Source: a virus
Lineage: Duplodnaviria; Heunggongvirae; Uroviricota; Caudoviricetes
Reading direction: 5' to 3' (one strand)
Length of the DNA: 44,830 nucleotides
IMG/VR virus record: IMGVR_UViG_2740892487_000005
Coordinates: 1 to 44,830 of that record
The position numbers and the translations under genes were made by a program. Positions within the stretch are counted from its first letter, which is position 1. Every line of letters starts with the position of its first letter. A model generated the notes under the pieces. The model had not been told where the DNA came from and did not search any database. It worked only from the letters and a program-made list of their open reading frames with translations. Shown piece by piece: positions 5,475-39,056 of the stretch.

Positions 5475-6155
5475 TCATTTCCACTGCTCCCCGAACGTGA
5501 AGCCGATTTCCGCCAGCGCCTCGTCCATCTTCTCAATGAACTCCGGCACCATTTCGTTGAAATCGGTCATGTACTGCGGATCCCGCTCAACGACGACGTG
5601 GTGAATACCTTCGCGTTTCATGCGCGGGTCGTAGTTGGCAAAGAACCAGGCTTCTTTCCCGGTCACCCACATGCTGTACTGCACCTGGGCCATGTACTCT
5701 GACTTAATGGCTTCGAAACCGCCGAGGCGGAATTTCATGAAGTCGCGGGAGGTGAACGGACATTTCAATTCGAGGCCGAAATTGTTACTGCAAAGGCCGT
5801 CAGGGGAGCACGCGGTGCGCATGCTCTCGTCACGGAACAGGATCGGAGACTCCGTGACTTTCACGTCGGTGGTGAACTCGAAGAGGGTGCGGGCGTCTTC
5901 CTCGTACTGCTTTCCCCAGGCCAGAGCCTTGGCGTTAACCTCTGGCGCGACGCCGGTGCATACCTCGGCGAGTAGGGTGTGGAAGTAGGACATCTTCATG
6001 CCCGTCCATTTGGTGCCGGAGCGCGGCTTGGATATTACGTTGTGCACTTCAGAGGCGGTGATAACGCCGAGCCTTAATTTGGCCCATGCTTCATCACCTT
6101 GCTCTACGGTGGACACATCAATGCCGGTCCTGGCCAGGATAATTTCGGGTGTCAT
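5475..6155 (-). CDS. exo: Exonuclease (lambda Exo / YqaJ-like recombination exonuclease)
   Basis: 226-aa protein closely resembling lambda Exo (MTP.IIL.RTGIDV…GDEAW…[15 protein letters not shown]… [24 protein letters not shown]…). Confidence 0.9.
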
Positions 6156-7013
6156 GCTGCCGCCTTAGCTTTTTTCTGAAGGAAGTTGAACCCTTTCTGT
6201 GCCTCTTCTTCAGTGAGGTCTGACGCCTCAAGAATTGGCCGTTTGAAGATGTCGCTGCACACTGGGAGGAAGTCTTGCTCCCAGTCTTTATTCAGCGATG
6301 TTAAGAGATCGGTGATCGCCTGAAGTGTTTCTTCGCTTGCTGCTGGTGGAAGCGCTTCTGTGGTGCTGCGCGGGGTGACGTCACGAATATCAACGTCCAG
6401 CGATTTGCCTTCCATTTCTTCTGCAGTAGGCTGCTGTCCAATCTCAGGCCATGCCTTGCGCAACGCCTGGGCTTCTGCGCATTTCGCCAGCTGTCCATAC
6501 GGGCGTTTTTTTCCACATCGCGTTCGGCGCCGTGGTGTCACGTCCGCCGGTGGCGTAGTTTTCAATCCAGTATTCTTTAGCGCTGAACTCGACGATCTCG
6601 CCGCTGGGCATGCGCTTGAAAACGGTGTATTTGCACCACTGAGGGAAGGTCACCTCGACACCAGTAAGCGTCTGAGTTACGTCGGGCCCGAACTCGGGCT
6701 CGCGAGCCCCGGCATAATCGCCGGAGCGGTCTGCCTGAATGCGGTAAAGTCCGATGCCCGGCATGACGACGTCGCGCCATTCGCCTTTACCTGTTTTCGA
6801 GTCTTTGACGTACATCGGAACGAGGTGGACAGGTTTGAGCAACGGATCCAGCTGGCGGGCGCGGCAGTAGTCAAGCGCCATCATTACCGATTCGTCTTTG
6901 GCGCCAGGATAGATGCTGTTCTTCAGCGCGCTCCAGGTGGAGACGTCGACGCCTATCTCCTGAAGCGACGTCGCTGTGATTGTTAATTCGTTTGCCATCG
7001 TTAATCCCCTCAA
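6152..7013 (-). CDS. bet: Recombination protein Bet (RecT family single-strand annealing protein); split by an indel in this sequence
   Basis: ORFs 6444..7013 (N-terminal) and 6152..6565 (C-terminal …[38 protein letters not shown], Bet-like) overlap in different frames. Removing one T from the T7 run at 6506-6512 joins them. Confidence 0.85.
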
Positions 7014-9209: not shown

Positions 9210-9887
9210 TTATGGGATGTTTAGTATTTTGGCATCAACCACAACGCCGATGATTTTGCAGTTTCCATTAATTTCTAGCATTGGATATGCGGGGTTAAGG
9301 GGCTTTAGGAAGCGTCTGCCGGCATCGATTACAAGCTTCTTAAAGGTCGCTTCGTTATCGCCTTCTAGCTTCGCGACAACCAGCTTTCCGTTGCGCGGCT
9401 CGACTTCAGGATCAACAAGTATCGCTGCTCCCTCGGGTATGCTCAGTCCAGCCGGGGAGGTCATAGAATCCCCTTTAACGTCCAGCCAGAATGAATCTTC
9501 TGAGCAGTCAACAGTCGTGTCATACCAGCGATCTATCGCTCTTCGGTGATAAGGTTCTACAGCTTCCATCCATTGCCCCGCGCTTACCCAGCTGATTACA
9601 GGATAACTTCCTTTTGTCTCGTTCAGTCCTCGAAATGCAACGTTCGAAGGTTCTTCACTGGCGTGTAAAACATCCATCCAGCCAAAAGGCAGATCAAGCG
9701 CAGTTTCAATTTTGCGAGCCATCTTATCGCCGATATTGCGATGAGGGTTTGGTCCCAGTAGCTGGCTAAGCGCAGCCGGACTTGTCTCGATGAGCTCGGC
9801 AAACTGCGCTTTGGTCATTCCAGACTCGTGCTGACGCTTCTCGTACAGCGCTTCCAGGTTGGCTTTTCTGATTTCTTTATTTTCCAT
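9210..9887 (-). CDS. cI: CI-type repressor (N-terminal HTH, C-terminal S24 LexA-like peptidase domain)
   Basis: ORF 9210..10004; probable start at ATG 9887 (MENKEIRKANLEALYEKRQ…). Contains HTH and a GDSM…K self-cleavage-type domain. Divergent from cro across the operator region. Confidence 0.9.
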   Translation of the reverse strand: MENKEIRKANLEALYEKRQHESGMTKAQFAELIETSPAALSQLLGPNPHRNIGDKMARKIETALDLPFGWMDVLHASEEPSNVAFRGLNETKGSYPVISWVSAGQWMEAVEPYHRRAIDRWYDTTVDCSEDSFWLDVKGDSMTSPAGLSIPEGAAILVDPEVEPRNGKLVVAKLEGDNEATFKKLVIDAGRRFLKPLNPAYPMLEINGNCKIIGVVVDAKILNIP

Positions 9888-9904
9888 ACCTGCATTGTTA
9901 CTGC

Positions 9905-9971
9905 TTTTAGCAAAATGATAAATGTGCAAATTGCTAAATGATGCTTGCGTAGTATTTAGCATAACGCTAAA
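9905..9971. promoter_or_regulatory. Putative OR operators with PRM/PR between cI and cro
   Basis: Three sites related to TTTAGC-N5-GCTAAA, including a perfect palindrome TTTAGCataacGCTAAA at 9954-9970, in the 116-bp divergent intergenic region. Confidence 0.55.
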
Positions 9972-10003
9972 CTCCAAATCAAACGACTCACCCGGAGACA
10001 CCA

Positions 10004-10237
10004 ATGAGCACTGAACTACACCGCTGGCGCAAGGCCGCCACTACCGACGAATGGGCGCAGCTCGCAAAGTTGGCTAACACGACGCCAGGTTACCTGGACC
10101 AGATCGCCTACGGAAATCGCCGGGCATCTCCAGAAATGGCATCTGCTATCGAGAAAGGCACGAAGAATTTTCACCGCCAGGCTCCGGTCCTAAAAGAAAG
10201 CCTGGTATTCGCATCGCCGCGTGATACTGCGGCCTAA
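10004..10237 (+). CDS. cro: Cro-like transcriptional regulator (YdaS-type HTH)
   Basis: 77-aa ORF divergent from cI, first gene of the rightward operon. Confidence 0.7.
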   Translation: MSTELHRWRKAATTDEWAQLAKLANTTPGYLDQIAYGNRRASPEMASAIEKGTKNFHRQAPVLKESLVFASPRDTAA

Positions 10238-12826: not shown

Positions 12827-13212
12827 GCAACATCGACAAACGTGGATTACGGGAAGCAGCGGAGAAGGCGACGAAAGGCCGGTGGGCTGTTGAGTTCGAC
12901 GATGAGATTTACTCCACTGACGGCGTGAACCATGAGCAAATAGCCATGGTATTCAGTGAAAACGAAGCGCGTGATGCTGCATTTATCGCCGCAGCCAACC
13001 CCGCCACCGTGCTGGCGCTGCTGGCATCGCTGGAAGCCGCAGAGAAGCGAATCGCTGAACTGGAAGCGAAGCTCGATAGCGCAGATAAATTGCAAGATAG
13101 CGCATTTCGTCATGGTCTTCAGCATGGCTTCAGTTTTGGTCAAACGGATAATCAGGCTGGATTTGAAGAGTGCTTATCTGCATATGGAGCGCGGGGTAAA
13201 GATAATGGCTAA
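12823..13212 (+). CDS. Ead/Ea22-like family protein
   Basis: Start at ATG 12823 after GGGTAGGGG; N-terminus MSNIDKRGLREAAEKATKGRW… is typical of ead/Ea22-like proteins (from memory). Confidence 0.5.
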   Translation: MSNIDKRGLREAAEKATKGRWAVEFDDEIYSTDGVNHEQIAMVFSENEARDAAFIAAANPATVLALLASLEAAEKRIAELEAKLDSADKLQDSAFRHGLQHGFSFGQTDNQAGFEECLSAYGARGKDNG

Positions 13213-13405
13213 TTCATTACTTGAAACATGCAATGACTGGCAAATTCTTCGCGCAGAAATATTGGCTCGAAATCCAAATATGGCCATGACACTTCAAAAG
13301 CTCGACATCATGATTGAGCATTCCGTTAGGGCGGCAATTGAAATATCGCATCGTGTTGACTGGGATTTTAGTGAAGCAGAGCGTAAAGCTAAGGCGGTGA
13401 ATTAA
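13205..13405 (+). CDS. Hypothetical small protein
   Basis: 66 aa from ATG 13205 (MANSLLETCNDW…). Confidence 0.4.
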   Translation: MANSLLETCNDWQILRAEILARNPNMAMTLQKLDIMIEHSVRAAIEISHRVDWDFSEAERKAKAVN

Positions 13406-14152
13406 TGGAACTTTCACGGGATAAGATTAAAGAAATAATCAATGACGATTGGCTTTTGATGGATGATTGCGAAGGAAATAAAAACTGTGACGTTGTCAAA
13501 GAGATGGCGCGTATAGCGTTGGCATCGCTCGAAGCGGAGCCGGTGGCGTGGTTGCTGTCAGGAGGCGGGGCAAAAAAACAACGTCAGCTTCGATAGTGGC
13601 AATGCTTATGCTGACCCATTGCGTGAGGTGACACCACTCTACGCAGCACCACAGTTACCGCAGCCAGCGGTGTTATCAGTGCCAGATGAAATACCGAAAC
13701 TGAAAGATGGGATGGGCTTTAAGTATGTGAAAGATGGCGTCCGATATTCCTTAAATTATGCCAACGGATGGAATCAATGCCGCGCCGCCATGCTTCAGGC
13801 CGAACCTGTAAGTAATAGTGATGAGTTACCGCTGGACTATCTGCAAGGACACAAAGACGGCCTGGAGTGGGCTGCACAATTGGCAGAAGCCAATCATCCG
13901 CAAACAGGTGACTGGTTGTACGACGACCAAATCGATCTTGCCAGGGCGATTCGCAAAGGTCCGGATATGCCTACTGTTCAGGGTGGCAACTCTCCGGTGA
14001 TTCCAGATGGTTGGGTGATGGTGCCGGTTGAGCTTACTCCGGATATGCGTGCAGCATGGGATTCGGCTCCGTACACAGACGATGATGACAACGACATGCA
14101 GGCTGCATACCGCGCGATGATTGCAGCAGCACCGCAGTGGAAGGTGAAGTGA
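13405..14152 (+). CDS. Hypothetical phage protein; probably one gene split by an indel
   Basis: ORF 13405..13596 ends just after the A7 run at 13572-13578. The downstream ORF (13619..14152) has only a TTG start and no RBS, and its frame is open back through the run; removing one A fuses them. Confidence 0.45.
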
Positions 14153-14265
14153 TGCAGAACCCATTCGACGAGATAATTTAAATCTAGTATTTTTATTTTC
14201 ATTGTTAGTCAAAAAAAGCTGAGCTCCGCCACAAAAAACGTGGCTCAGCTTCTGAGTGCACAGAT

Positions 14266-14766
14266 ATGATATTCGAATATATAAAGCAACATTCAGAGGT
14301 AATCATTTCCGGTTTTTCAGTCGCCGCGGCCATCGCCTCTGCCTGGGCTGCTATTGCAAGCAGGCAGACGGCAGCAAAAGCACTAAAAATCCAAAGCAGA
14401 ATGAGCCTGTATGAGCTTCTAAAATCCACTGCCGAAAAAGCTAATTCTTTCTCAAAGGGCAAGAGAGGTGCAGAGTGGGATTTCTATGACGCTGCCAATA
14501 TAGTTCGATGCCTTAACCTGGCAATGGAGAGCATAAAAGATCATACCGAAAATGATGACAAGCTTGATATAAGAGAGCTAAAACAATTCTTCTTAAGCCA
14601 ATTGAATATGGAGCTCTTTGAAGAGCTCAACTATCAAGTCGGACCGGATGCTTTCTTCCGGGGAGAGGAGCCCAACAGCATGAGCAGCGATATTTACGCG
14701 CAATGGATAAATGCTATTTCATTCTTTAACTTCATGGTTGTAACAGATGAGGATCTTGCTGATTAA
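14266..14766 (+). CDS. Hypothetical membrane-anchored protein (cargo gene in nin region)
   Basis: 166 aa with one N-terminal hydrophobic helix (SGFSVAAAIASAWAAIA); visibly AT-rich island between early genes and ninB. Confidence 0.6.
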   Translation: MIFEYIKQHSEVIISGFSVAAAIASAWAAIASRQTAAKALKIQSRMSLYELLKSTAEKANSFSKGKRGAEWDFYDAANIVRCLNLAMESIKDHTENDDKLDIRELKQFFLSQLNMELFEELNYQVGPDAFFRGEEPNSMSSDIYAQWINAISFFNFMVVTDEDLAD

Positions 14767-14954
14767 ACTCAGCGCAATTGATTTTCCAAAATCAACCAGC
14801 CATAATCATGTCATCGGAGCCTGAACAACTCCGGTGACTTCTGCGCATTTAAGGGGACTTAAATGCGACCACAATCTGAACTCCTCACATTGTCACAGAT
14901 GCAGACATGCACCTGCGATTTTCTGTATTCTGCGTTACCTCTCGGAGGTGGCGT

Positions 14955-15392
14955 ATGAAACAGCCTGTTTTCTACCTCCGCGACGAACGCGTTCGCGATA
15001 ACCTCATCGACTACATCAGGAAGCTGCCCGTTAACGACGCTCTGCCGCTCGTGGTGAAGTTTTCTGAGGCTGACCGCACTCTCGCCCAAAACGACCTCTT
15101 CCACGCTCTCTGTGGCGATACAGCGAAGCAATTGCAATGGGCTGGCAAGTCGCGCGACCTCGCTTCATGGAAAGTCCTGTATGTCTCAGGCCATGCCATT
15201 GCCACCGGTAAGCCTGGTGAAGTGGTGCCGGGTCTGGAAGGGGAGTTCTGCGCCATCCGGGAAAGCACTGCGAAGATGGGCATCCGTCGCATGACCAGTC
15301 TCATCGAATACAGCCAGGCATTTGCTGTGCAAAACGGCGTGCAACTCCGTGAAGTTCGCTACTCAGGTGATTACTTCGGGAGGGTTGCGTAA
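14955..15392 (+). CDS. ninB: Recombination protein NinB
   Basis: Start at ATG 14955 after GGAGGTGG; sequence MKQPVFYLRDERVRDNLIDYIRKLP… resembles lambda NinB. Confidence 0.85.
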   Translation: MKQPVFYLRDERVRDNLIDYIRKLPVNDALPLVVKFSEADRTLAQNDLFHALCGDTAKQLQWAGKSRDLASWKVLYVSGHAIATGKPGEVVPGLEGEFCAIRESTAKMGIRRMTSLIEYSQAFAVQNGVQLREVRYSGDYFGRVA

Positions 15393-16204: not shown

Positions 16205-16341
16205 AACCAGAACTGATCGAATCGCTTCGCATGCGCTGGCTGCGTCTCCGCATTTATCGCCGCCCGGGTACGGTGCTGGTGGGCTACCGCATTCTTCGAA
16301 ACTTTATCCGCATCTACCAGATTGCAGGAGCAGCAGCATGA
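16201..16341 (+). CDS. Hypothetical small protein (46 aa)
   Basis: ORF coupled at both ends by ATGA overlaps with rusA and Q. Confidence 0.35.
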
Positions 16342-17042
16342 TCACTCAAGACCTGGAATTTGTACGCCAGCAGCTCATAGTTGCGACTGCGGATCTGAGC
16401 GGGGCGACTAAAGGGCAGTTGATGGCCTGGCTGGAGAACGCTCAGTTCGATACAAAGACATTTAAGCGGAAGAAGCCCAAAGTTTGGGACGAAGAAAGCG
16501 AGAAATGGGTACCGGTTGATAACCCGCCGATCCCCGGCAAACAGTCACACGCGAAGGGCTCGCACATTCCTCTGGTTCAGCCGGTCGAATACTCCACAGC
16601 ATCGTGGCGCCGGGCGGTCCTGTCGCTCGAGGAGCACCAGAAAGCTTGGCTGCTCTGGAACTACAGCGAAAACACGCGCTGGGAGAACCAGCTGGCGATC
16701 ACCCAATGGGCTTGGGCAGAGTTCAGGGCGCAGCTTGGAACCAGGAAGATTGCCGGCAAGACCATGGACAGGCTGAAGGCGTTAATCTGGTTGGCTGCGC
16801 AGGACGTGAAGAAAGGTCTCCGTGGTGGGGATAAATTTACTGGTGTTGAACTGGCTGATCTGACAGGGGTGGAAGAGAAAAACTGGTACAAGACGTTTGG
16901 CGGCCATTGGCAAACAATGCAGGAGGTACTCGAGGCTCTTGATAGAGATGCTTTGCGCGCGGTTTCGCGATCACGTTCACAACAAAAGGCGGCTCATTTC
17001 CAGCAAGGTATTGCAAAAGTAGAGAAAATAGCGCATATTTAA
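16338..17042 (+). CDS. Q: Late-gene antitermination protein Q
   Basis: 234-aa ORF at the end of the nin region, directly upstream of the late regulatory region and lysis genes; family call from memory. Confidence 0.7.
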   Translation: MITQDLEFVRQQLIVATADLSGATKGQLMAWLENAQFDTKTFKRKKPKVWDEESEKWVPVDNPPIPGKQSHAKGSHIPLVQPVEYSTASWRRAVLSLEEHQKAWLLWNYSENTRWENQLAITQWAWAEFRAQLGTRKIAGKTMDRLKALIWLAAQDVKKGLRGGDKFTGVELADLTGVEEKNWYKTFGGHWQTMQEVLEALDRDALRAVSRSRSQQKAAHFQQGIAKVEKIAHI

Positions 17043-18786: not shown

Positions 18787-19055
18787 CTAAACTGAAAGCC
18801 ATCCTGGCAGGAATCGGGCTCGCCATCGCGCTGGTACTGGCCGCATTTGGTATTGGCGGTATTCGTGGGCGAGAAAAGGCCGAAGCAGAGTCAGAAAAGA
18901 AACGTACCGACGAGAACGCCGCAGCCACCAAAGCAGCTGCAGAACGACGCGTTGAAGTAACCAAGGAGGCCAGCAATGTTCAGCAGACAGTTAGCCATAT
19001 GCCTGATGACGATGTTGATCGTGAGCTGCGCGCAAACTGGACCCGCAAAGGTTGA
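18783..19055 (+). CDS. Spanin, inner-membrane subunit (Rz-like)
   Basis: N-terminal TM helix followed by charged coiled coil, directly after the endolysin. Confidence 0.6.
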   Translation: MTKLKAILAGIGLAIALVLAAFGIGGIRGREKAEAESEKKRTDENAAATKAAAERRVEVTKEASNVQQTVSHMPDDDVDRELRANWTRKG

Positions 19056-19221
19056 GGTAATCGACACCGGCTGCGACTGGGTCAACGTCATTCGCCTCAC
19101 TGAGCACGACATCGAAGTGATGGATCGCCAGACGAAGAAAGATGTGCTGGCACATAACAAATCGGTGCAGGCGAACTGCCAACCGAGTGAATACCGGGCC
19201 TTACAAACGCGGCCTGAGTGA
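18976..19221 (+). CDS. Spanin, outer-membrane lipoprotein subunit (Rz1-like)
   Basis: Lipoprotein signal with lipobox (MFSRQLAICLMTMLIVSC) in an ORF overlapping the 3' end of the Rz-like gene. Confidence 0.65.
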   Translation: MFSRQLAICLMTMLIVSCAQTGPAKVEVIDTGCDWVNVIRLTEHDIEVMDRQTKKDVLAHNKSVQANCQPSEYRALQTRPE

Positions 19222-19253
19222 AACAGAAACAATAAAGCGAGGTGCTTTCCCCA

Positions 19254-19433
19254 TGAAAAAAAGAAGACCGTGGTTTTATCTCGGTTACTAACTCAATCAG
19301 CGAAGTAAAAAACCTCTTCCTGGGAAATGAAATCCCGCAAGAAGGTGAGGTGCTTGAACTGGTGGTTGTCAAAAGCGAAACCACCGATGACTCATGTGCA
19401 TTGGTGCTTAAGCTGCGTTCAGTTCAAAAATAA
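19254..19433 (+). CDS. Hypothetical small protein (about 59 aa), disrupted by two compensating indels in this sequence
   Basis: ATG 19254 preceded by GAGGTG; A7 run at 19257-19263. Reading is restored by removing one A there and adding one base near 19372-19380, giving …LELVVVKSETTDDSCALVLKLRSVQK*. Confidence 0.25.
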
Positions 19434-19545
19434 GACGAACTGATTGACAAATTGAGTATTTCACGTGTGAATTGATGTAACTCATCGATTACTCTGGTGT
19501 ATGAATTCATTATGAATTTCCACTCATCAGTATCGGAGAATATCG

Positions 19546-20287
19546 ATGCATCAACACATAGCAAACGCCACGTTTCAGGTCATCGCAGGTGACTCAAGTG
19601 GCAGTGGTTTTAGCTTCATCCGTGAAGATTTAGTTGTCACTAATTACCATGTTATAGAGTCATGCTTTAATCTAGAAACCAGAAGTCAAACCCATAGCAT
19701 CATCCTGAAAACGGAAGCTAATGAGCAAATTGCAGCTGGGATTGTCTACTTTGACCACGGTAATGATTTTGTCATCATGAAACTGCTTTCAGCACTGCCC
19801 ACAGGTAGAGTTGTTCTTCAGCCTTCCGTTGGTTTTTCACCCACCAGAGGCAAAAAAAATTATCTTTGCCGGTTATCCACACGGAATACCGCAGTTGCTG
19901 ACAAATGAAGCAATTATCTCAGCACCTATGGAGTTAGGCAGATTTGCAATTGATGGTATGGTCAATGGTGGTAATTCTGGCGGGCCAATTATAGATCGAG
20001 CCTCTGGCGAACTGGTGGGTGTCGTCACTCGGCGTAGATATCTTATGGGCGATCAAGCTGATGCTTTCAGTGAGGAGATTGAAAATTTGCGCCAATATCT
20101 TGCTGCAGCAAGCCAACATGGAAGTGTAGCAATAATGGGTGTCAATTTCGGCCAGATGGCAGATATGTTCGGTAGATCGCTACAGATAGTTTCAGATATG
20201 ATGTTGCTTAACGCTAATTCTGGCATCGGAATAGGATTCTCAATGCAGCCTATCATTGACGCCCTTAGCACCATCCCAACAGAATAA
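19546..20287 (+). CDS. Trypsin-like (S1/chymotrypsin-fold) serine protease, no signal peptide; split by an indel in this sequence
   Basis: ORFs 19546..19908 and 19811..20287 join when one A is removed from the A8 run at 19851-19858. Catalytic triad context TNYHV / DFVIMKL / GNSGGP. RBS GGAGAA before the ATG. Confidence 0.8.
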
Positions 20288-20315
20288 ACGTTCATCATGT
20301 GAGCGGTCACAAGAT

Positions 20316-20339
20316 AAAGCCTCGCATCAACGAGGCTTT
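20316..20339. terminator. Hairpin between convergent genes (weak bidirectional terminator candidate)
   Basis: Perfect 9-bp inverted repeat AAAGCCTCG/CGAGGCTTT with 6-nt loop; flanking U-tracts are weak. Confidence 0.35.
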
Positions 20340-20366
20340 AGGACAAATTCAGGGGAATTCATATCC

Positions 20367-20801
20367 TTAATCTTTTATTACTTCAAATTCTATCGTATCC
20401 CCCAAGGACTCCGTCATTACAGCGCACTTTATGACTGTAGTGCGCGAATTGGCTTCATTATCTACGAGTGCCTTTCGGAATATCGCTGAAAACTTGCTGA
20501 TCACGTCATTTCTTTGATCTCTAAAATTCGATCCTTCAATACGGATCAAGCCTTTGATGGCCGTTTCTAAGTCTTCTAGCTTTTGCCAATAAGTGAATGG
20601 TCTTGCTGCATTCTCGCTAAAAGTCTCCAGTTCACTCAATTTCTTAAGCTTGCCGATGTCGACGCGAACAGCATCGGATATTTCTTTCGCTCTATGAGTA
20701 TTCCCAACTTTGTTTACAGAGTATGTAAGTAAAAAGTATTCATGCAGCATCATTTGTTCCATTAATGAGATTGATACTAAAAAATTGGGACAAAAAGTCA
20801 T
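20367..20801 (-). CDS. Hypothetical protein (131-144 aa), convergent partner of the protease gene
   Basis: AT-rich ORF with no family recognised; start may be the internal Met at 20762. Confidence 0.55.
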   Translation of the reverse strand: MTFCPNFLVSISLMEQMMLHEYFLLTYSVNKVGNTHRAKEISDAVRVDIGKLKKLSELETFSENAARPFTYWQKLEDLETAIKGLIRIEGSNFRDQRNDVISKFSAIFRKALVDNEANSRTTVIKCAVMTESLGDTIEFEVIKD

Positions 20802-20879
20802 TATTCAATAGTAAGTTAAAAATTTTTCCAGCCATTTAAATCGGCGGATCGCTAAAGTCTTATCTATAGGAGCAGTATC

Positions 20880-21481
20880 ATGAGCAAACCGGACTGGGAG
20901 GCTATTGAATCGGCTTACCGGGCCGGAGTGATGTCCCTTCGCGAAATAGCATCGCAGCATGGCATCAGCGAAGGTGCTATCCGTAAGCGTGCCAAGCGTG
21001 ATGAATGGTCACGTGACCTCAACGCGAAGGTGAAAGAGCGCGCTGACGATCTGGTACGCAAAGCGAGGTACGCAAGCAGGTACGCAGCGAAACGGTACTT
21101 TCTGAGCGCGTACTAATCGAGGCCACTGCCGAGGTAATTGCCACAGTACGCATGGAGCACCGCGGCGACATCCGCCGGGCGAGGACTCTTGCGAACGCAC
21201 TGTTTGATGAGCTCGAGGCTGAGTGCGCAGACGTTGAGGCGCTGCGTACCTTGGGCCAAATGATGCTGTGTCCAGATGAGAACGGGCGTGACCGGCTGAA
21301 CGAGCTTTACCATGCCATCATCAGCATGCCCGAGCGCGTGAAGTCGATGAAAGCGCTGAGCGAGACGTTGAAGAATCTGATTGGCCTCGAGCGGCAGGCC
21401 TACAGCATGGACGAAGGCGAAAAAGATAAGGTCGTTGACGCGCTGTCTGACCTGATGGATTCGCTCTCTCAGGGGGCGTAA
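20880..21481 (+). CDS. Terminase small subunit; split by an indel in this sequence
   Basis: ORF 20880..21116 (HTH-type N-terminus MSKPDWEAIESAYRAGVMSLREIASQHGISEGAIRKRAKR) continues in ORF 21152..21481 after a one-base deletion near 21063-21066. Confidence 0.7.
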
Positions 21482-31211: not shown

Positions 31212-31228
31212 CCATACCAACCAAATAG

Positions 31229-31254
31229 ACCCGCTCCGGCGGGTTTTCTTTTTT
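31229..31254 (+). terminator. Intrinsic terminator/attenuator upstream of the major tail gene
   Basis: Stem ACCCGC/GCGGGT with loop TCCG followed by a T-rich run. Confidence 0.65.
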
Positions 31255-31276: not shown

Positions 31277-32020
31277 ATGGCTAATTGCCCTAGCTCTAAT
31301 GAGCGTCTATTCGGCGGCGCTGTCGTGCTGGAAGTCGCTGACAGCTGCCCGGATGTCAAACCACTTGAGTCTGAGTGGATGTCGCTGGCAGCCGGCACCT
31401 CCAAGGGATTCGACTTCAACCCGAACTCGGTAACCTCAGATGCTGATGACGGCGGCGGCTATGTCGAAACCATCATCACCAACAGCGATTTCACTCTGAG
31501 CTTCGAAGGTGAGGTCCGCAAAAAGGACAAACTGGACCAGTACGGTGTCGGCAAATTCATCAAGTATTTCGCTGACGAGCTGAAGGCCAAGCGCCAGCCT
31601 GGGATCTGGGTGCGCATGGACTACGGCCCGGTTGAATTCATCGGCTACATGAATATCACTTCGCTGAGTTCGGACGGCGGTACCAACGACATCGTGACGT
31701 TCTCAACCGAGTTCAAAGTGGGCGATGCCAGCACCATCGAAGTTAACGAAGTGACGGCAGTTGCGGTGACCGGCGTAACGGTGACCCCTGCTACCAGCAC
31801 AGGCGCGGCAGGCGGTACCAGCACCTTTACGGTCAATATCGCCCCGACTGGCGCAACCAACAAAGACTTCACCGTAGCATCAACCGATCCAACCAAAGCC
31901 ACTGCTACCGCCTCCGGTACCACCGTCACGGTGAGCCGCGTCGCCGCCGGCAGCGCGCAGATAATCATCAACACCGAAGACGGAAACTTTGTGGCCGTGC
32001 ATACGGTTACCGTTACCTAA
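31277..32020 (+). CDS. Major tail protein with C-terminal Ig-like (Big_2-type) domain
   Basis: 247 aa; the C-terminal Thr/Val/Ala-rich segment (…VTGVTVTPATSTGAAGGTSTFTVNIAPTGATNKDFTVAS…) is typical of Ig-like decorations on siphovirus tail tubes. Confidence 0.8.
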   Translation: MANCPSSNERLFGGAVVLEVADSCPDVKPLESEWMSLAAGTSKGFDFNPNSVTSDADDGGGYVETIITNSDFTLSFEGEVRKKDKLDQYGVGKFIKYFADELKAKRQPGIWVRMDYGPVEFIGYMNITSLSSDGGTNDIVTFSTEFKVGDASTIEVNEVTAVAVTGVTVTPATSTGAAGGTSTFTVNIAPTGATNKDFTVASTDPTKATATASGTTVTVSRVAAGSAQIIINTEDGNFVAVHTVTVT

Positions 32021-32078: not shown

Positions 32079-32753
32079 ATGACAGCATTAATCGACATTG
32101 GCGAGTTTTCTGTCAGTGATGGCCGTGAAGGCGGAAAAGACTACCTGCTGAGACCATCACTGATGGCGATGACGCGGATCGGCACTCCAGCAGAGATTGT
32201 TCAAGCGTATGCCACGGTGCACGGTAGTGATGTTGCTGCCGTCATCCAGCTCTGTACTGACACGCTTGGCCGCTTTCCTGACTGGCTGTCGCCATCCATG
32301 AATCGCATCGCAGAACGGCTGCTATCGCTGAGCATGCATATCATGCAGGCCTGCTGTGATGACGACCTCACCCCGATGATAGGTGAATGGAAAGGCTGGA
32401 GCCGATACGTCGTTTACCGGCCCGGGCAGATGCCGAGGAACGACATCATCGTGCTGGCTCAGCACCTGATGCAGCATGGCATCGTAGGTAAAGCCAGTGT
32501 GCGCCGCCTGCAGCGGCATGAGTCAGGCGAAACGACGAACGAGTTTAAGGCCTTCGACTACATTAGCGCGGCGCGTAGCCACTTCGGCATGAGCCGGGAA
32601 GAGGCTGCAGCGCTGACTATGACCGAGTTTCAGCTGATGCTCGCGCAGAAATACCCCGATCAGAAGGGCTTCACCCGCGAAGAGTACGACGCGGTTGCTG
32701 ATGACTACCTGAAAAAGCAGGCAGCACGCCGGGCGCAGGCGAATCAGAAGTAA
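32079..32753 (+). CDS. Putative tail assembly chaperone
   Basis: Start at ATG 32079 after GGAAGGAA; position between major tail protein and tape measure. Confidence 0.5.
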   Translation: MTALIDIGEFSVSDGREGGKDYLLRPSLMAMTRIGTPAEIVQAYATVHGSDVAAVIQLCTDTLGRFPDWLSPSMNRIAERLLSLSMHIMQACCDDDLTPMIGEWKGWSRYVVYRPGQMPRNDIIVLAQHLMQHGIVGKASVRRLQRHESGETTNEFKAFDYISAARSHFGMSREEAAALTMTEFQLMLAQKYPDQKGFTREEYDAVADDYLKKQAARRAQANQK

Positions 32754-32862
32754 CCGGCATTCATTCCGGGCACCTCTTGAGATCAATAAATCAGCAGTTG
32801 CCGTTGCGCCTGTGCTATTCCTGGGTAGGATGTTTCCACTTTTACCAATGGGGAATAGGGAT

Positions 32863-33201
32863 ATGAAGAAGTTAGCTTTGGCATTGCTTGCAGTGGTTTC
32901 CTTGGGAGCTACCGCGTCTAATACGTACACAAAAGAACAGCTCAACTCAATGGCTGCGTCTGGGAGTTACCCAGAACAGGAGTCACCAGTTACTAAGAGC
33001 GTTGAGTCAGTGTCATTTGAGAGGTGCAAGCAGGACACCTACGGCGTTTATAACCAAATCGCGGGCAATTATCCGGCACAAGAAGTTGTCAACACTGGCA
33101 TCCTTTACACTGTTAAAATTTGGACCAACGACGGCGTGATCATGGTTTCATGTTCAGAGCCTGATGGTAAAAAACTTGTCACTCAATCCTCCTACAAGTA
33201 A
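32863..33201 (+). CDS. Hypothetical secreted protein (signal peptide)
   Basis: Start at ATG 32863 (MKKLALALLAVVSLGATA…); AT-rich cargo. Confidence 0.55.
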   Translation: MKKLALALLAVVSLGATASNTYTKEQLNSMAASGSYPEQESPVTKSVESVSFERCKQDTYGVYNQIAGNYPAQEVVNTGILYTVKIWTNDGVIMVSCSEPDGKKLVTQSSYK

Positions 33202-33212
33202 AGGGAATCTAT

Positions 33213-33545
33213 ATGAGCGAACAAGAGCAACTTCAGCGTTTGAGTGAAGAGGTGGCCAGAGCATACCTGCGCCACCTGGAATCAACCACTGGCGGAAATA
33301 AAGTTACTTACGATGGCGTGACAAGATCAATTACCCTCGAAGAACTAGTTTTTGGTCTCATAGGGGTCGCGCACTTCAATGCGAAAAACCATCCAGATGA
33401 CGAGATACTAAAAGACCCATATAAACATCTCTCGCACATGATTGATATTTTATCAAAGCCGTATGTGATAACTGAGTTTGGTCTAAAAGTTATTGAACAT
33501 ATGAATGAAATTTCCATTCATAAACAGCGCGGGGTGTTGATGTGA
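33213..33545 (+). CDS. Hypothetical protein (110 aa)
   Basis: Middle gene of the cargo cassette. Confidence 0.5.
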   Translation: MSEQEQLQRLSEEVARAYLRHLESTTGGNKVTYDGVTRSITLEELVFGLIGVAHFNAKNHPDDEILKDPYKHLSHMIDILSKPYVITEFGLKVIEHMNEISIHKQRGVLM

Positions 33546-33919
33546 AAACGGGTGCAATGTGCTTATCTTTGCTGATTTTAATTTCTGGTTGCGATGATGG
33601 CGGAAAAGGAAGTGTATCTAACGGCGCTGATACAGCTATAACAATGTTCAAATCATCTATGAGTGAGGGGGATCATCCACCCTTCAACTATCAGCGTCTC
33701 GTATTCAAACCAGATCAGCAAAACTCAAGCAAGGTAATAAGTGGGTGGGTTTGCGGAGATGGAAGCATGAAGCGTGATGATAAGACCTTTAACTTTAAAG
33801 TTAGAGGTCATGTTATTAAGTCAGAAGATATTTCATACGTTGGTGACATAGCCGCACTGCTTTCTGATACTGAAATGGTCAAATACGACATTCTTTACAA
33901 TAAGAATTGCAAAGAATAA
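33542..33919 (+). CDS. Hypothetical lipoprotein
   Basis: Lipobox …LLILISGC… at the N-terminus. Confidence 0.55.
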   Translation: MKTGAMCLSLLILISGCDDGGKGSVSNGADTAITMFKSSMSEGDHPPFNYQRLVFKPDQQNSSKVISGWVCGDGSMKRDDKTFNFKVRGHVIKSEDISYVGDIAALLSDTEMVKYDILYNKNCKE

Positions 33920-33940
33920 GCAGTAAGGAATATTAACAAA

Positions 33941-33962
33941 CCTCGCCTTGGCGGGGTTTTTT
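33941..33962 (+). terminator. Intrinsic terminator after the lipoprotein cassette
   Basis: GC-rich stem (CCTCGC/GCGGGG) followed by T6. Confidence 0.6.
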
Positions 33963-33979
33963 ATTGCCCGGAGATAGCA

Positions 33980-36892
33980 ATGGCAAAAGAACAAAATGCT
34001 GGCAGCGTCGTCTATACGGTAAGCGCTGAGATAGAACCCCTACTGATTGCTGGTAAGCAGGCCATTGATGTTCTGGATAAGCTGGATGCAGCCGCTCAGC
34101 AGTCTGGCAAGGGAATGGATAGCCTGGACCAGAGCACATCCCAGACCGGATCGGCGTTCAACGAACTGGCTGGATATGCCAATTCAATGGATAACCAACT
34201 GCGTAAACTGAACACCAATGTAAGCGGCATAGCTCGCGCCATGGAAGAAGCTCGCAGCGGTACCGGGGGAGCTAACAGCGAGTTCAATCGTGCTGAATCA
34301 ATCATTGAGGCATTGGGTAACCAGCTGGCGATACTGGACGAGGCACAGGAGAATGGCGCTCGCAGCGCTGCAGTGTTGGCAGCCCAGTTACGCGCCGGGT
34401 CTAAAGCCACCGATGAAGAAAAGCAGAAAATTGGCGAGCTGACAGGCCGTCTATACGATATGAAAACCAGTGTAGATGCTGGTTCAAAAGGTCATGGAAA
34501 CTGGAAAAACAGCATGCAGCAAGCTGGCTACCAGGTGCAGGACTTCATCGTTCAGGTTCAGGGGGGGCAGTCTGCGCTGGTGGCCTTCGCTCAGCAAGGC
34601 TCACAGCTTGCTGGAGCTTTTGGTCCAGGAGGCGCGGTAGTAGGTGCTGTTCTTGCGCTAAGCACGGTTGTAGCAGGGGCGCTTATAACATCTTTGAACG
34701 GCGGAAAGTCTGCCATGGATGCGCTGAAAGATGCAGCCGAGGCGATGGATAAAGTCATTACTATTTCTCAAAATGGTGTGGCTGCGCTGTCAGATAAGTA
34801 TGCAATGCTCGCTAAAACTAACGCAGAAGCAGCGACCATTCTCCGCAATCAAGCCATCATTGAATATAATTCAGCTGTTTCAAAGATCCCGAAGGCTATT
34901 GGTGATGCGGCGGCTTCGGTAATTGATTTTGGCGATAAAGCTCTCAGCGCTTTTTCAGGTGGTTATGCATCAATTAAAGGTTTTAGTGACCGACTTGCCT
35001 CGCTGAATATCACCACTGATGACTACACAGAGGCAATGAAGCAGGCTTATGGCGCTGGGCAGGCCTTCCAGGCTACAGCGAGTAGCATCGGCAATACCGT
35101 TGGCTCAGTTGCGAGTAAGTTCGCAATCTCTGAGCAAGCTGCCTTTAAGCTTGTTAAACAAATGGATGAAGTGCAGCGGACCAAATCCACAGAAGCACTT
35201 CAAAGATTGGTCATAGAATTACAAAACACCAAAAGCTCATCAGATAGCGGAACTAACGCGATTATCGAGTTTTTGAAACCACTAACGGAATTAGTTGGTG
35301 CGGCTGGGATGGCAAAAGTCAACTTGGCCGGTATGAACCTTGAGATGGATAATCTCACCGCTGGCCAGAAAAACCTTATCAAGCAGACAGAGCGCAACTT
35401 AGCACTGTCAAAATTGCAGGGTGAGGAGCGAGTGCGACTGCAGGCGCAATACGCAGCTGAGGATGCAGGGTTTGCTAAAGACGACCCGCATGCTAAGCAG
35501 ATGGAGCAGGATGCAGCAGCGACCTACCGTAACACCCAGGCACAGAAAACCTTCCAATCTGAGCGGAAGAAGGGAGTCTCGCAGGCTGAATCCATTGCTC
35601 AGAAACTGGCAAATCTGAAGCAGCAGGCAGAACTGGCTGCCGGGTCGACGCAACAACTCAGCCGCGAGCAGGCCATTCTCACCGCCCAGCAATCTCTGGG
35701 TGCAGCAGCAACTCAAAAAGACCTCGAACTTGCCGGTCAGTATGCCGCTGCAAAATGGGATACTGCCAACGCGCTCAAAGCCCAGGCCGCCGCCGAGAAA
35801 CTCCTGCCGGAAACGCGCGAAAACGCCAGCTATAAGCAGGATGTTCAGGATCTGAATACTGCCCTGACCGCGAAGAAAATCAGTCAGGAACAGTACAACG
35901 AAACCGCAGAACGACTGGAGGCGACGCACCAGACCAACCTCGCCAAAATCCGCGCTCAGCAGGCGGTAACGCCCCAACAGGAGGCGGCTGGCACTGTTGA
36001 CCCGGTGCAGCAACTGGCGAACGAGAACGCGCGTAAGCTGGCGCTGATTCAGCAGTACGAGCAGCAGGGCGTATTAACCCACCAGAATGCGCTGGCGCTG
36101 CGAGCTGCTGCTGATACAGAGTACGAGCAGGCGCGCATCGCTGCACAGTGGGAGATTTACCGTAATCAGAGCACTGGCAATGAACTGCTGGCCACCTCGC
36201 TGGAAGGCCTGCAGAGCGGGGCAACCAATGCCCTCACTGGATTAATCAACGGCACCCAGAGCCTGCAGGAGGCAATGGCTAACGTTGGCTCGACCATCAT
36301 CAACAGCGTGATCGGCAGCCTCGTAGAAATGGGCATGCAGTGGGTTAAAAATCAGGTGATGGGGCAGGCAGCGGCGGCAGCCTCTCTGGCATCTACCATG
36401 GCGCAGGCAACTGCTGCAGCATCAGCTTGGGCGCCGGCAGCAATGAGTGCGTCGATCGCCACGTACGGCAGCGCCGCTGCTGTTGGTCAATCGGCTTATG
36501 CAGCCTCTCTTCTGTCAGCCAAGGGGTTAGCTGTCGCCGGTGCCCGCGAACACGGCGGGCCGGTCTCGGCCAGCTCCATGTACCGTGTGGGCGAAGGTGG
36601 CAAACCTGAGATTTTCAAAGCCAGCAATGGTAGCCAGTACATGATCCCCGGCGATAACGGTCGCGTCATCAGTAACCGCGATATTGGCGGTAGTGGCGGT
36701 GGGTTCAATTACAGCCCGGTCATCCATGTAAACGGTGACCCGACAGAGCAGCAGCTTGCCATGCTGGAGGCTGCAGTTAAGCGCGGGGCGCAGCAGGGAT
36801 ATTCCATGGCCGTCAGCGACGTCGCCAGTGGCAAAGGTAAGCTCTCCAACGCTCTGACCAACAACTTCAACACCAGTCAACGCCTCACATAA
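33980..36892 (+). CDS. Tail tape measure protein
   Basis: 970-aa Ala/Gln-rich, largely helical protein, between the tail chaperone position and the distal tail genes. Confidence 0.9.
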   Translation: MAKEQNAGSVVYTVSAEIEPLLIAGKQAIDVLDKLDAAAQQSGKGMDSLDQSTSQTGSAFNELAGYANSMDNQLRKLNTNVSGIARAMEEARSGTGGANSEFNRAESIIEALGNQLAILDEAQENGARSAAVLAAQLRAGSKATDEEKQKIGELTGRLYDMKTSVDAGSKGHGNWKNSMQQAGYQVQDFIVQVQGGQSALVAFAQQGSQLAGAFGPGGAVVGAVLALSTVVAGALITSLNGGKSAMDALKDAAEAMDKVITISQNGVAALSDKYAMLAKTNAEAATILRNQAIIEYNSAVSKIPKAIGDAAASVIDFGDKALSAFSGGYASIKGFSDRLASLNITTDDYTEAMKQAYGAGQAFQATASSIGNTVGSVASKFAISEQAAFKLVKQMDEVQRTKSTEALQRLVIELQNTKSSSDSGTNAIIEFLKPLTELVGAAGMAKVNLAGMNLEMDNLTAGQKNLIKQTERNLALSKLQGEERVRLQAQYAAEDAGFAKDDPHAKQMEQDAAATYRNTQAQKTFQSERKKGVSQAESIAQKLANLKQQAELAAGSTQQLSREQAILTAQQSLGAAATQKDLELAGQYAAAKWDTANALKAQAAAEKLLPETRENASYKQDVQDLNTALTAKKISQEQYNETAERLEATHQTNLAKIRAQQAVTPQQEAAGTVDPVQQLANENARKLALIQQYEQQGVLTHQNALALRAAADTEYEQARIAAQWEIYRNQSTGNELLATSLEGLQSGATNALTGLINGTQSLQEAMANVGSTIINSVIGSLVEMGMQWVKNQVMGQAAAAASLASTMAQATAAASAWAPAAMSASIATYGSAAAVGQSAYAASLLSAKGLAVAGAREHGGPVSASSMYRVGEGGKPEIFKASNGSQYMIPGDNGRVISNRDIGGSGGGFNYSPVIHVNGDPTEQQLAMLEAAVKRGAQQGYSMAVSDVASGKGKLSNALTNNFNTSQRLT

Positions 36893-37912: not shown

Positions 37913-38467
37913 ATGCTCGGCTCTCTCAGGGAAATTGTCTTCTCCGTTGCAAAGCATGAAGTTGGACACTGGCTCGCGTGGCATTGCTATGGCGGTTCTT
38001 CATCTGGCATTGAAGTAAAAATTATATCGATTAGTGGGCGACACACAGGTGCCTTTCTACCTGACATGGAGTGGGAAGTGTCTACGCTGGATGACGCTTG
38101 TAAATATTTAAAAGCCAGATTGCTGTGCCTGCACGCTGGTATTTATGCGGAATCTTTTCTCGGCAATATTTACGACGCAGAACGCATAGTCCGTGAGTTT
38201 AACCATCTCGGCGCTGCAGCATCTGATTTTCACCGGAGTATTGAGCTGGCCTGGGCTTACTGCAACCTCACAGGCCGCTCAGATCAATACAGCGCGGTTT
38301 GCAGTGAAATAGACCAGGAGGCGACCAAGCTGGTTGCGGACAATTTTGAATTTATTAAGCACGCAGCGAAAGCGATCTCAGACATGGCGGTTTACGAAGG
38401 TCAGATTATTAAACTCCCTGATTATGAACTGCAATCCATGTATGAAAAATTTAAACGTCAGAGGTGA
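37913..38467 (+). CDS. Stand-alone HExxH zinc metallopeptidase-like protein resembling the FtsH (M41) protease domain
   Basis: 184 aa; HEVGH motif followed by IEVKIISISGRHTGAF and LHAGIYAESFLG, resembling FtsH HEAGHA…HKVTIIPRG…LGGRAAEE. No ATPase domain or TM. Visibly lower GC than flanking tail genes. Confidence 0.6.
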   Translation: MLGSLREIVFSVAKHEVGHWLAWHCYGGSSSGIEVKIISISGRHTGAFLPDMEWEVSTLDDACKYLKARLLCLHAGIYAESFLGNIYDAERIVREFNHLGAAASDFHRSIELAWAYCNLTGRSDQYSAVCSEIDQEATKLVADNFEFIKHAAKAISDMAVYEGQIIKLPDYELQSMYEKFKRQR

Positions 38468-38470
38468 TGA

Positions 38471-38642
38471 ATGGAAAAAGTAACGCTGTCCGTAAAATTT
38501 GATACCACATCATTAGATGAGGCAATCGAGAAGGTCAGGACCTTAAAAAAAAGAACTAAGGGAGCTTGGCTTGCCTTACTTCACCGGCAATCCTCTGGCT
38601 GGATACCAGCCACAACAAGAAGAAAAAGCCACCAACCAGTAA
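38471..38642 (+). CDS. Hypothetical small protein (about 56 aa), partner of the metallopeptidase-like gene; frameshifted in this sequence
   Basis: Removing one A from the A8 run at 38545-38552 gives MEKVTLSVKFDTTSLDEAIEKVRTLKKELRELGLPYFTGNPLAGYQPQQEEKATNQ*, ending exactly at a strong terminator. Confidence 0.4.
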
Positions 38643-38664
38643 GCCGCTTGAAGCGGCTTTTTTT
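38641..38664 (+). terminator. Intrinsic terminator
   Basis: Perfect 7-bp stem AAGCCGC/GCGGCTT with 5-nt loop followed by T7. Confidence 0.8.
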
Positions 38665-38675
38665 ATGAGGCGCCC

Positions 38676-39056
38676 ATGTTCAATCCTGATAAATACCGTT
38701 CTGTCGAGTGGCAGAAGGGCGGACGCGATTACCCCGCACTGGACTGCTTTGGCATCGTCAACGAAATCAGGCGCGATCTTGGCCTGGCTCCGTGGCCTGA
38801 TTTCGCCGGAGTCACAAAGGATGATGACGGCCTCGACCGGGAGGCGCGCGGGCTGATGGCTGGCCTGACGCGATGTGAGCCTGCCCCGGGCGCGGGTATC
38901 GCCTGTTATTCAGGCTCTGTGGTGACGCACGTTGCCATCGTTGTTGAGATTGATGGCCAGCTTCGCGCCGCGGAGTGCAATCCCCGCACTAACGTAACCT
39001 TCCTGCCGCTGGCGCGGTTTGCGCGCCGCTTTGTTCGCGTGGAGTATTACCAGTGA
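38676..39056 (+). CDS. NlpC/P60 (C40) peptidase-like tail protein (gpK-position)
   Basis: 126 aa with Cys (…LDCFGIV…) and His (…VTHVAIV…) in the arrangement of NlpC/P60 catalytic residues. Confidence 0.55.
   Translation: MFNPDKYRSVEWQKGGRDYPALDCFGIVNEIRRDLGLAPWPDFAGVTKDDDGLDREARGLMAGLTRCEPAPGAGIACYSGSVVTHVAIVVEIDGQLRAAECNPRTNVTFLPLARFARRFVRVEYYQ

Follow-up and report, generated by a model that had tools for sequence, protein, structure and literature searches.

The term moron was first applied to gene 15 of phage HK97 (Juhala et al. 2000, as recounted in PMC3594210). In the HK97 record, gene 15 (annotated as 'moron product') follows the chaperone genes gp13/14 and precedes a terminator, with the tape measure gene starting 13 nt further on, and its GC content is 0.33 compared to 0.55 for the flank. 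Its product gp15 is, in the account that PMC3594210 gives of Cumby et al. (2012), a prophage-expressed inner-membrane exclusion protein that blocks genome entry. Here, we study a cassette of three small genes (g1, g2 and g3) at the equivalent position of a 44,830-nt stretch of viral DNA (IMG/VR record IMGVR_UViG_2740892487_000005, positions 1 to 44,830; hereafter the window), where it lies between a gene of the DUF6246 family and the tape measure gene (Table 1). Given the HK97 precedent, this arrangement is not new. We are highly confident that the cassette is a moron as well.

Further described systems are related to the cassette by location or by theme. Within what PMC3952083 and PMC10883804 summarize, Ltp of the Streptococcus thermophilus phage TP-J34 is a prophage lipoprotein that sits on the outside of the cytoplasmic membrane and targets the tape measure protein (Bebeacua et al. 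2013). In the same two summaries, escape from gp15 and Ltp maps to tail tube/tape measure genes or to the tape measure protein. The envelope protein P-FimU of Pseudomonas F10-like phages is expressed from the prophage; its gene neighbours that of the tail chaperone, and its anti-phage effect is due to the alteration of a surface structure (PMC12952977). Finally, the lipoproteins Cor of phi80 and Llp of T5 are reported to inactivate the outer-membrane receptor FhuA (note in the T5 record; PMC3594210). In the T5 record, llp adjoins pb5, a receptor-binding gene.

In its layout, the cassette follows HK97 gene 15. Both share the slot between chaperone and tape measure gene, a low GC content, an own terminator shortly ahead of the tape measure start, a lambdoid carrier prophage whose late control is of the Q type, and an envelope-targeted product. 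They differ in gene number (one in HK97 vs. three here) and show no sequence similarity (best expectation value E 0.41, to g2). Furthermore, gp15 is a 62-aa YebO-like membrane protein, whereas g3 is predicted to be lipid-anchored and g1 to be soluble in the periplasm; neither by similarity nor by a transmembrane-length stretch could a YebO-like single-pass membrane protein be found among g1, g2 and g3. As far as Ltp is covered by the sources above, it agrees with g3 in the predicted site and, in theme, in the relation to the tape measure protein (the g3 family tracks the tape measure class, see below), while its host is Gram-positive. P-FimU is likewise a prophage envelope protein encoded within a tail gene cluster; its slot, in contrast, is between tube and chaperone genes, its host is another one and it has a host homologue (the pilin FimU), while the cassette proteins are without a recognisable host counterpart. 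That is, we observe a multi-gene moron in the classic slot that carries new, uncharacterised protein families: it is optional at a colinear site, foreign in composition and equipped with its own terminator.

The optional nature of the cassette follows from a comparison of about 95 related loci gathered from deposited phages, Escherichia coli genomes and IMG/VR contigs, in each of which the DUF6246 gene, the cargo and the tape measure gene were located (single loci are denoted by L numbers in the following). In Enterobacter phage CobraSix, the slot is without any cargo and just 13 bp separate the DUF6246 from the tape measure gene, while in other loci the gap extends to as much as 5.8 kb. Altogether, 83 cargo clusters were found among the surveyed loci, and about 57 related prophages and phages identify the slot as a hotspot for cargo. 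In ENT1, the gap of 398 bp holds a different open reading frame (ORF), and other genes also fill the slot in E. coli MB20, GN25 and E3, in SPN3UB and in others. Overall, the slot contents are mosaic, i.e., composed of KilA-N and Arc/Ant-like modules and assorted unknown genes, with a short unit near the tape measure end that opens with g1 or g2 and closes with an envelope-targeted protein.

Within this unit, the three genes occur in various combinations. The full set g1+g2+g3 is present in the window and three near-identical prophages, g2+g3 in L060, and g3 alone in L061, L063, L067 and Hafnia (L099). In L013, g1+g2 are combined with another lipoprotein gene, while many Klebsiella prophages carry g1 or g2 each together with some other gene. 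Thus, g1, g2 and g3 shuffle independently; g1 and g2 behave as modules of their own and not as obligate partners of g3. The whole cassette is rare: it was found in only 2 of 5,426 complete E. coli genomes, and no g3 homologue is encoded by any of 50,697 deposited phage genomes. The cassettes of E. coli 1008S19 and FDAARGOS_1250 show about 95% DNA identity to that of the window.

These observations agree with the original prediction, made from the sequence of the window, that the three genes are inserted cargo and not conserved tail components shared by all relatives. The opposite assumption, i.e., that g1, g2 and g3 are tail assembly, structural or injection-assisting components, is suggested by their location inside the tail operon, on the same strand and directly before the tape measure gene. 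It is effectively refuted by relatives with an empty site: CobraSix, ENT1, MB20 and many others share homologous genes for the tube, the DUF6246 protein and the tape measure, yet lack the cassette genes. Because the slot is optional and mosaic, the cassette is rare in E. coli and g3 is absent from deposited phages, we consider a role in tail assembly as ruled out. In addition, two of the three proteins are predicted to be exported from the cytoplasm, where tails assemble, the composition of the cassette is foreign, and a terminator separates it from the tape measure gene.

The cassette had been described as visibly AT-rich, which holds for both measures we used. GC content is 0.46, 0.42 and 0.40 for g1, g2 and g3, respectively, and thus below that of the DUF6246 gene (0.57) and the tape measure gene (0.54); the GC content at third codon positions (0.51, 0.42 and 0.37) is also below both flanks (0.67 and 0.56, respectively). 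This base composition is that of foreign, horizontally acquired DNA. All three ORFs were found where they had been predicted, on the plus strand between the DUF6246 and the tape measure gene, and they are real genes, more than chance ORFs, since they belong to conserved families, and since low ratios of nonsynonymous to synonymous substitution rates (dN/dS) as well as confident models were obtained for g1 and g3. When clustered at 90% identity, the families comprise 44 (g1), 16 (g2) and 14 (g3) clusters, all of them restricted to Enterobacterales. For g1 and g3, dN/dS is 0.05-0.08 in the comparisons with unsaturated dS. For g2, dS is saturated in all comparisons, with dN values of 0.20-0.25. 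The AlphaFold models of g1 and g3 show a predicted local distance difference test score (pLDDT) above 90 across the mature domains.

The cassette starts with a leader that is conserved independently of the gene behind it. It is 93-100% identical ahead of three different first genes, namely g1, g2 (directly, in L060/L069, which lack g1) and an unrelated lipoprotein gene (L009, L010; E. coli GN25, E3); respective copies are located at 5001-5076 in L009, 5360-5435 in L010, 5587-5671 in L060 and 5917-5993 in L045/L046. We aligned 54 distinct upstream regions and found a -10-like TA..AT element (TAGGAT or TACGAT) as well as the ribosome-binding site (RBS) to be conserved in at least 90%, with a TTG-containing -35-like hexamer 16-17 nt upstream of the -10-like element. 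These promoter-like elements usually sit just past the terminator hairpin of the preceding module, and the cassette may have a promoter of its own. In L045/L046, the leader is far better conserved than the adjacent g1 coding sequence. Since it is near-identical there beside a g1 with saturated synonymous sites, the leader is either a strongly constrained regulatory element or is repeatedly exchanged, i.e., serves as a recombination junction. A structured RNA was considered for the leader and rejected, because its fold is not unusual (z-score +0.97) and an Rfam scan of positions 32600-34100 provided no match at gathering score, in the leader or elsewhere. The same scan listed five weak sub-threshold matches at 33775-33965, which overlap the end of g3 and the terminator.

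At the other end, the cassette is closed by a hairpin (AAACCTCGC-CTTG-GCGGGGTTT, followed by a T run) 14 nt ahead of the tape measure ATG. The intrinsic terminator proposed behind g3 is thereby supported at the sequence level by a 9-bp stem and the T run. In 42/57 related loci, the last cargo gene has a terminator hairpin behind it; the hairpin is found after unrelated genes and is mostly of nearly the same sequence. The junction of the terminator with the RBS and start of the tape measure gene (33934-33984) is furthermore about 91% identical in the Klebsiella phages 2b LV-2017 and vB_Kpn_RAH1, the tape measure genes of which are otherwise not alignable at the DNA level. This junction may be the right-hand boundary for cargo exchange.

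Next to the transcription signals, the export signals of the proteins are informative. They were called by a rule-based script, together with the conservation within the families and the low confidence of the models in the N-terminal peptides. The N-terminus of g1 (MKKLALALLAVVSLGATA, then SNTYTK) shows a basic n-region, an 11-residue hydrophobic core (mean Kyte-Doolittle value 2.9) and an A-x-A cleavage site (A16-T-A18, then Ser), such that the cut is predicted after Ala18. Among the 35 members of the g1 family, the sequence of the N-terminal peptide varies while its character is kept, and the start of the mature protein (TYTKEQLN) is conserved. Such a variable peptide in front of a conserved mature start is the signature of a cleaved signal peptide. 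Two Cys residues of g1 (C55 and C97) are invariant. Protein g2 contains neither a signal peptide nor Cys nor a transmembrane-length hydrophobic stretch. Its C-terminal Met is invariant because of a conserved ATGTGA stop/start overlap with whichever gene follows, which would imply translational coupling with that gene. In the window, it is the GTG start of g3 that overlaps the g2 stop in this way.

For g3, a lipobox (L-I-S-G-C17) was identified, with Cys17 invariant in the 14 family members; two more Cys (C71 and C123) are invariant as well. At position +2 (Asp18), 12/14 members have Asp and 2/14 Asn. According to the Lol-avoidance rule, Asp at +2 of E. coli lipoproteins results in retention in the inner membrane. 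We therefore predict g3 to be retained on the periplasmic face of the inner membrane. Beyond the signal peptides, no transmembrane-length hydrophobic stretch is present in g1, g2 or g3. Script and family conservation thus agree on the localisations expected from the original prediction (g1 with signal peptide, g2 cytoplasmic, g3 with lipobox), and the secretion signals of g1 and g3 are conserved throughout the family alignments.

Given these features, the cassette would work as a self-contained transcription unit, consisting of the promoter-like leader, g1, g2, g3 and the terminator. In the lysogen, the unit would be transcribed from its own weak sigma-70-type promoter and transcription would end at its own terminator. 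During lytic growth, Q-modified polymerase would read through into the tape measure gene. Such read-through is possible because the window encodes a Q-like antiterminator; for the HK97 morons, PMC3594210 mentions it as a proposal for lytic late transcription. The envelope proteins may then alter the envelope of the lysogen such that incoming phages are excluded, where g3, on the periplasmic face of the inner membrane, could block DNA injection (tape-measure-dependent channel formation) in the way summarized above for gp15 and Ltp. A block at injection is favoured over a block of the receptor due to the predicted inner-membrane anchor of g3 and its link to the tape measure class.

This link was studied based on tape measure classes defined by at least 70% identity. 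Of the eight tape measure proteins in the same class as that of the window, seven are accompanied by lipoproteins of the g3 type; the remaining one is that of ENT1, where a lipoprotein is missing. In contrast to g1 and g2, the terminal gene, i.e., the one adjoining the tape measure gene, belongs to a family that varies with the tape measure class. The product of the terminal gene is usually secreted or lipidated and belongs to one of at least eight unrelated families, three of which are lipoprotein families with Asp at +2. We also considered the terminal families to be a single diverged superfamily; this was rejected since profile-profile comparison aligned their signal peptides only. The co-variation of terminal gene and tape measure class fits a tape-measure-specific function, but also linkage among related prophages. 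In L028, L032, L073 and L081, both genes are set apart by other modules.

The original prediction had put the cassette next to Cor and Llp. In this reading, the lipoprotein would be sorted to the outer membrane and disable the phage's own receptor from within the periplasm, such that adsorption fails. Cor (phi80, N15; phrog_1119) and Llp (T5) do resemble g3 in being small phage or prophage lipoproteins with a conserved Cys that are encoded among tail genes, and g3 has extra conserved Cys as both of them have. Moreover, a true Cor gene was found in the very same slot of L092 (IMGVR_UViG_2872112595_000003, positions 5614-5889). Its product is 65% identical to phi80 Cor (phrog_1119, E 2e-33), and the gene is closely followed by a homologue of g2 and a gene for a lipoprotein with Asp at +2. 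Thus, at least one proven exclusion gene type uses this slot, which lends the idea of exclusion some indirect support.

The proteins of the window, in contrast, are no homologues of Cor or Llp. The comparison suggested along with the prediction was run, and no likeness was found by sequence or profile: none of g1, g2 and g3 matches phrog_1119 at E ≤0.1 (with the L092 protein as positive control), BLASTP against phi80 Cor reports nothing better than E 0.45 for g1 and g3 and does not align g2 at all, hhalign against Cor aligns the signal peptide only, and BLASTP against T5 Llp provides no alignment at E ≤100 for any of the three. A direct comparison of the cassette proteins with phi80 MorF was negative, too, and no Cor or Llp entry is among the top 60 fold matches of g3 in the PDB. 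Position +2 also differs, since the Asp/Asn kept in the g3 family is opposed by Ser in Llp and Ala in phi80 Cor. A masking of the receptor is less likely because g3 is predicted for the inner membrane, while Cor and Llp are reported to act on a receptor in the outer membrane. Together with the tracking of the tape measure class by the g3 family, this renders a receptor block of the Cor/Llp type improbable.

A further explanation is that the cassette is lysogenic-conversion cargo unrelated to phage exclusion, which would benefit host fitness in another way, e.g., by Bor/Lom-like surface factors, orphan periplasmic immunity proteins against effectors of type VI secretion systems (T6SS) or bacteriocins, or stress-related lipoproteins. 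Morons are known to have diverse functions (PMC3594210), and the alternative cargo of the slot includes a BamE-like lipoprotein as well as a VasI/TagO-like T6SS-associated periplasmic protein. On the other hand, no specific match supports any such function for g1, g2 or g3, Cor is found in the same slot, and a general fitness factor is not expected to track the tape measure class beyond linkage. We consider conversion cargo of this kind as less likely than not, but as a serious alternative.

Searches for function gave little to decide between such readings. Nothing specific was found in Pfam and NCBIfam for g1, g2 and g3 (solely a sub-threshold match of the g1 signal peptide to YhcN), and none of them matches a PADLOC defence-system model at E ≤0.1. 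Two of them, g1 and g2, belong to PHROGs without known function. Searching PDB sequences with the family profiles provided nothing except one match for g2 with E 0.73. The remote relatives that an exhaustive profile search recovered for g2 are all unannotated and about 108 aa long, apart from two long repeat proteins of low complexity that were judged spurious. A Foldseek search of the BFVD with g3 found no viral structure at E ≤0.001.

Several observations weigh against a moron unit whose envelope proteins exclude phages with g3 acting at injection. No cassette protein resembles any known exclusion protein, and the modelled folds of g1 and g3 are generic, such that no function is assignable from them. 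The promoter candidate matches only 8/12 consensus positions and was not called by a consensus scan, and the inner-membrane assignment of g3 has the +2 sorting rule as its sole basis. The co-variation of terminal gene and tape measure class may simply reflect that both genes are physically linked in closely related prophages. Since the slot also houses cytoplasmic regulators (KilA-N, Arc/Ant), location alone does not imply exclusion. Finally, homologues of g1 also occupy other positions in the tail operons of lambda-like modules, either between M and L or between K and I/J. Hence, g1 does not depend on the vicinity of the tape measure gene and is a mobile moron of the tail operon. Respective homologues are located at 6001-6336 in L018 and at 6001-6339 in each of L023, L012 and L022, often followed by a gene for a lipoprotein or small membrane protein.

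Weighing both sides, we regard the combined statement, i.e., a moron unit with phage-excluding envelope proteins of which g3 acts at injection, as nearly as probable as its negation. Taken by itself, the exclusion of other phages by the cassette is a tentative proposition that we place somewhat below even, and a specific block of DNA injection by g3 is unlikely. Even further reaching is a model in which the slot would be a plug-and-play expression site with leader and terminator on either side of interchangeable envelope proteins, the tape-measure-matched inner-membrane g3 would block injection as a Gram-negative counterpart of Ltp, and several unrelated families would have been recruited for the same task; this is quite unlikely. 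As a more speculative variant, the cystatin-like fold modelled for g3 might inhibit the papain-fold (CHAP/NlpC-P60) peptidase of incoming tails. A tail gene that is probably of this type is present in the window as well (Table 1).

If the proteins do exclude phages, g1, g2 and g3 would bring three uncharacterised families to the few envelope-level exclusion proteins of Enterobacterales. In that case, g3 would be a lipid-anchored example at the inner membrane and could help to show how siphophage tape measure proteins cross the periplasm. If they do not, the cassette is a routine moron and the value is in the mapped hotspot. In any case, the comparative map yields three testable candidates, and the conserved leader and terminator provide a simple rule to find such cargo in prophages of Klebsiella, Enterobacter, Salmonella and E. 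coli, which matters for predicting host range in phage therapy.

Judged by its gene content (integrase, repressor, replication, antiterminator, lysis, terminase, head and siphovirus tail genes), the window is a lambdoid prophage. Besides the features listed in Table 1, it encodes CII-, O- and P-like proteins, RusA, holins, an endolysin, Rz, terminase and head genes. The gene upstream of the cassette had been taken to be the tail assembly chaperone. Its position after the tail tube gene fits, and from this position we infer a chaperone. What was identified, however, is a DUF6246 protein without a frameshift ORF, i.e., no overlapping plus-strand ORF of at least 40 aa is available that could form a G/GT-type product. 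A literature search on DUF6246 found nothing relevant.

Table 1. Coordinates of the cassette, its signals and selected further genes within the window.
Feature	Position	Strand	Remarks
Integrase	486-1550	minus	
CI-like repressor	9210-10004	minus	
Q-like antiterminator	16338-17042		phrog_304, E 3e-95
Ig-domain tail tube gene	31277-32020		
DUF6246 protein (left flank)	32079-32753	+	224 aa; PF19759, E 1.4e-72; phrog_791
Conserved leader	32777-32862	+	86 bp, upstream of g1 ATG
Sigma-70-like promoter candidate	32804-32809 (-35), 32826-32831 (-10)	+	TTGCGC, 16-nt spacer, TAGGAT; inside leader
RBS	within 32777-32862	+	GGGGAATAGGGAT, ahead of g1 ATG
g1, predicted secreted periplasmic protein	32863-33201	+	112 aa; phrog_21923
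g2, predicted cytoplasmic protein	33213-33545	+	110 aa; phrog_19131
g3, predicted lipoprotein	33542-33919	+	125 aa; lipobox
Intrinsic terminator	33938-33966	+	including T run; 9-bp stem 33938-33959
Tape measure protein (right flank)	33980-36892	+	970 aa; annotated so in near-identical E. coli prophages
CHAP/NlpC-P60-type tail gene	38676-39056		type judged by annotated counterparts (related E. coli prophages, SPN3UB); own match only to a 'minor tail protein' PHROG

Other regions of the window show features of cargo, too. Amid the minor tail genes, a 184-aa protein with an HExxH motif (37913-38467; phrog_36675) is encoded with a GC content of 0.47, followed by a small ORF (38471-38668) with a GC content of 0.44. 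Both together are probably a second moron. The HExxH protein is 27% identical (E 1e-18) to cargo that Klebsiella prophages carry in the slot of the cassette; cargo families thus pass from one slot of the tail operon to another. Another cargo region is probably given by positions 19000-21100 between lysis genes and terminase. Here, the GC content is low (0.43-0.45), the ORFs 19546-19908 and 19811-20287 are without PHROG match, and the ORF 20367-20801 is on the minus strand. Low GC content (0.46-0.49) is also observed for positions 13000-15000 of the early region, downstream of the replication genes.

Between the tail terminator gene and the major tail gene, a terminator-like hairpin that scores on both strands is located at 31227-31246; in HK97, a putative terminator is annotated at the same position. 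Finally, in T5 (L097), the genes of the tail assembly chaperone are separated from pb2, the tape measure gene, by an inserted endonuclease gene with a putative terminator (778-1588). Here, too, the junction of chaperone and tape measure genes accepts an insertion.

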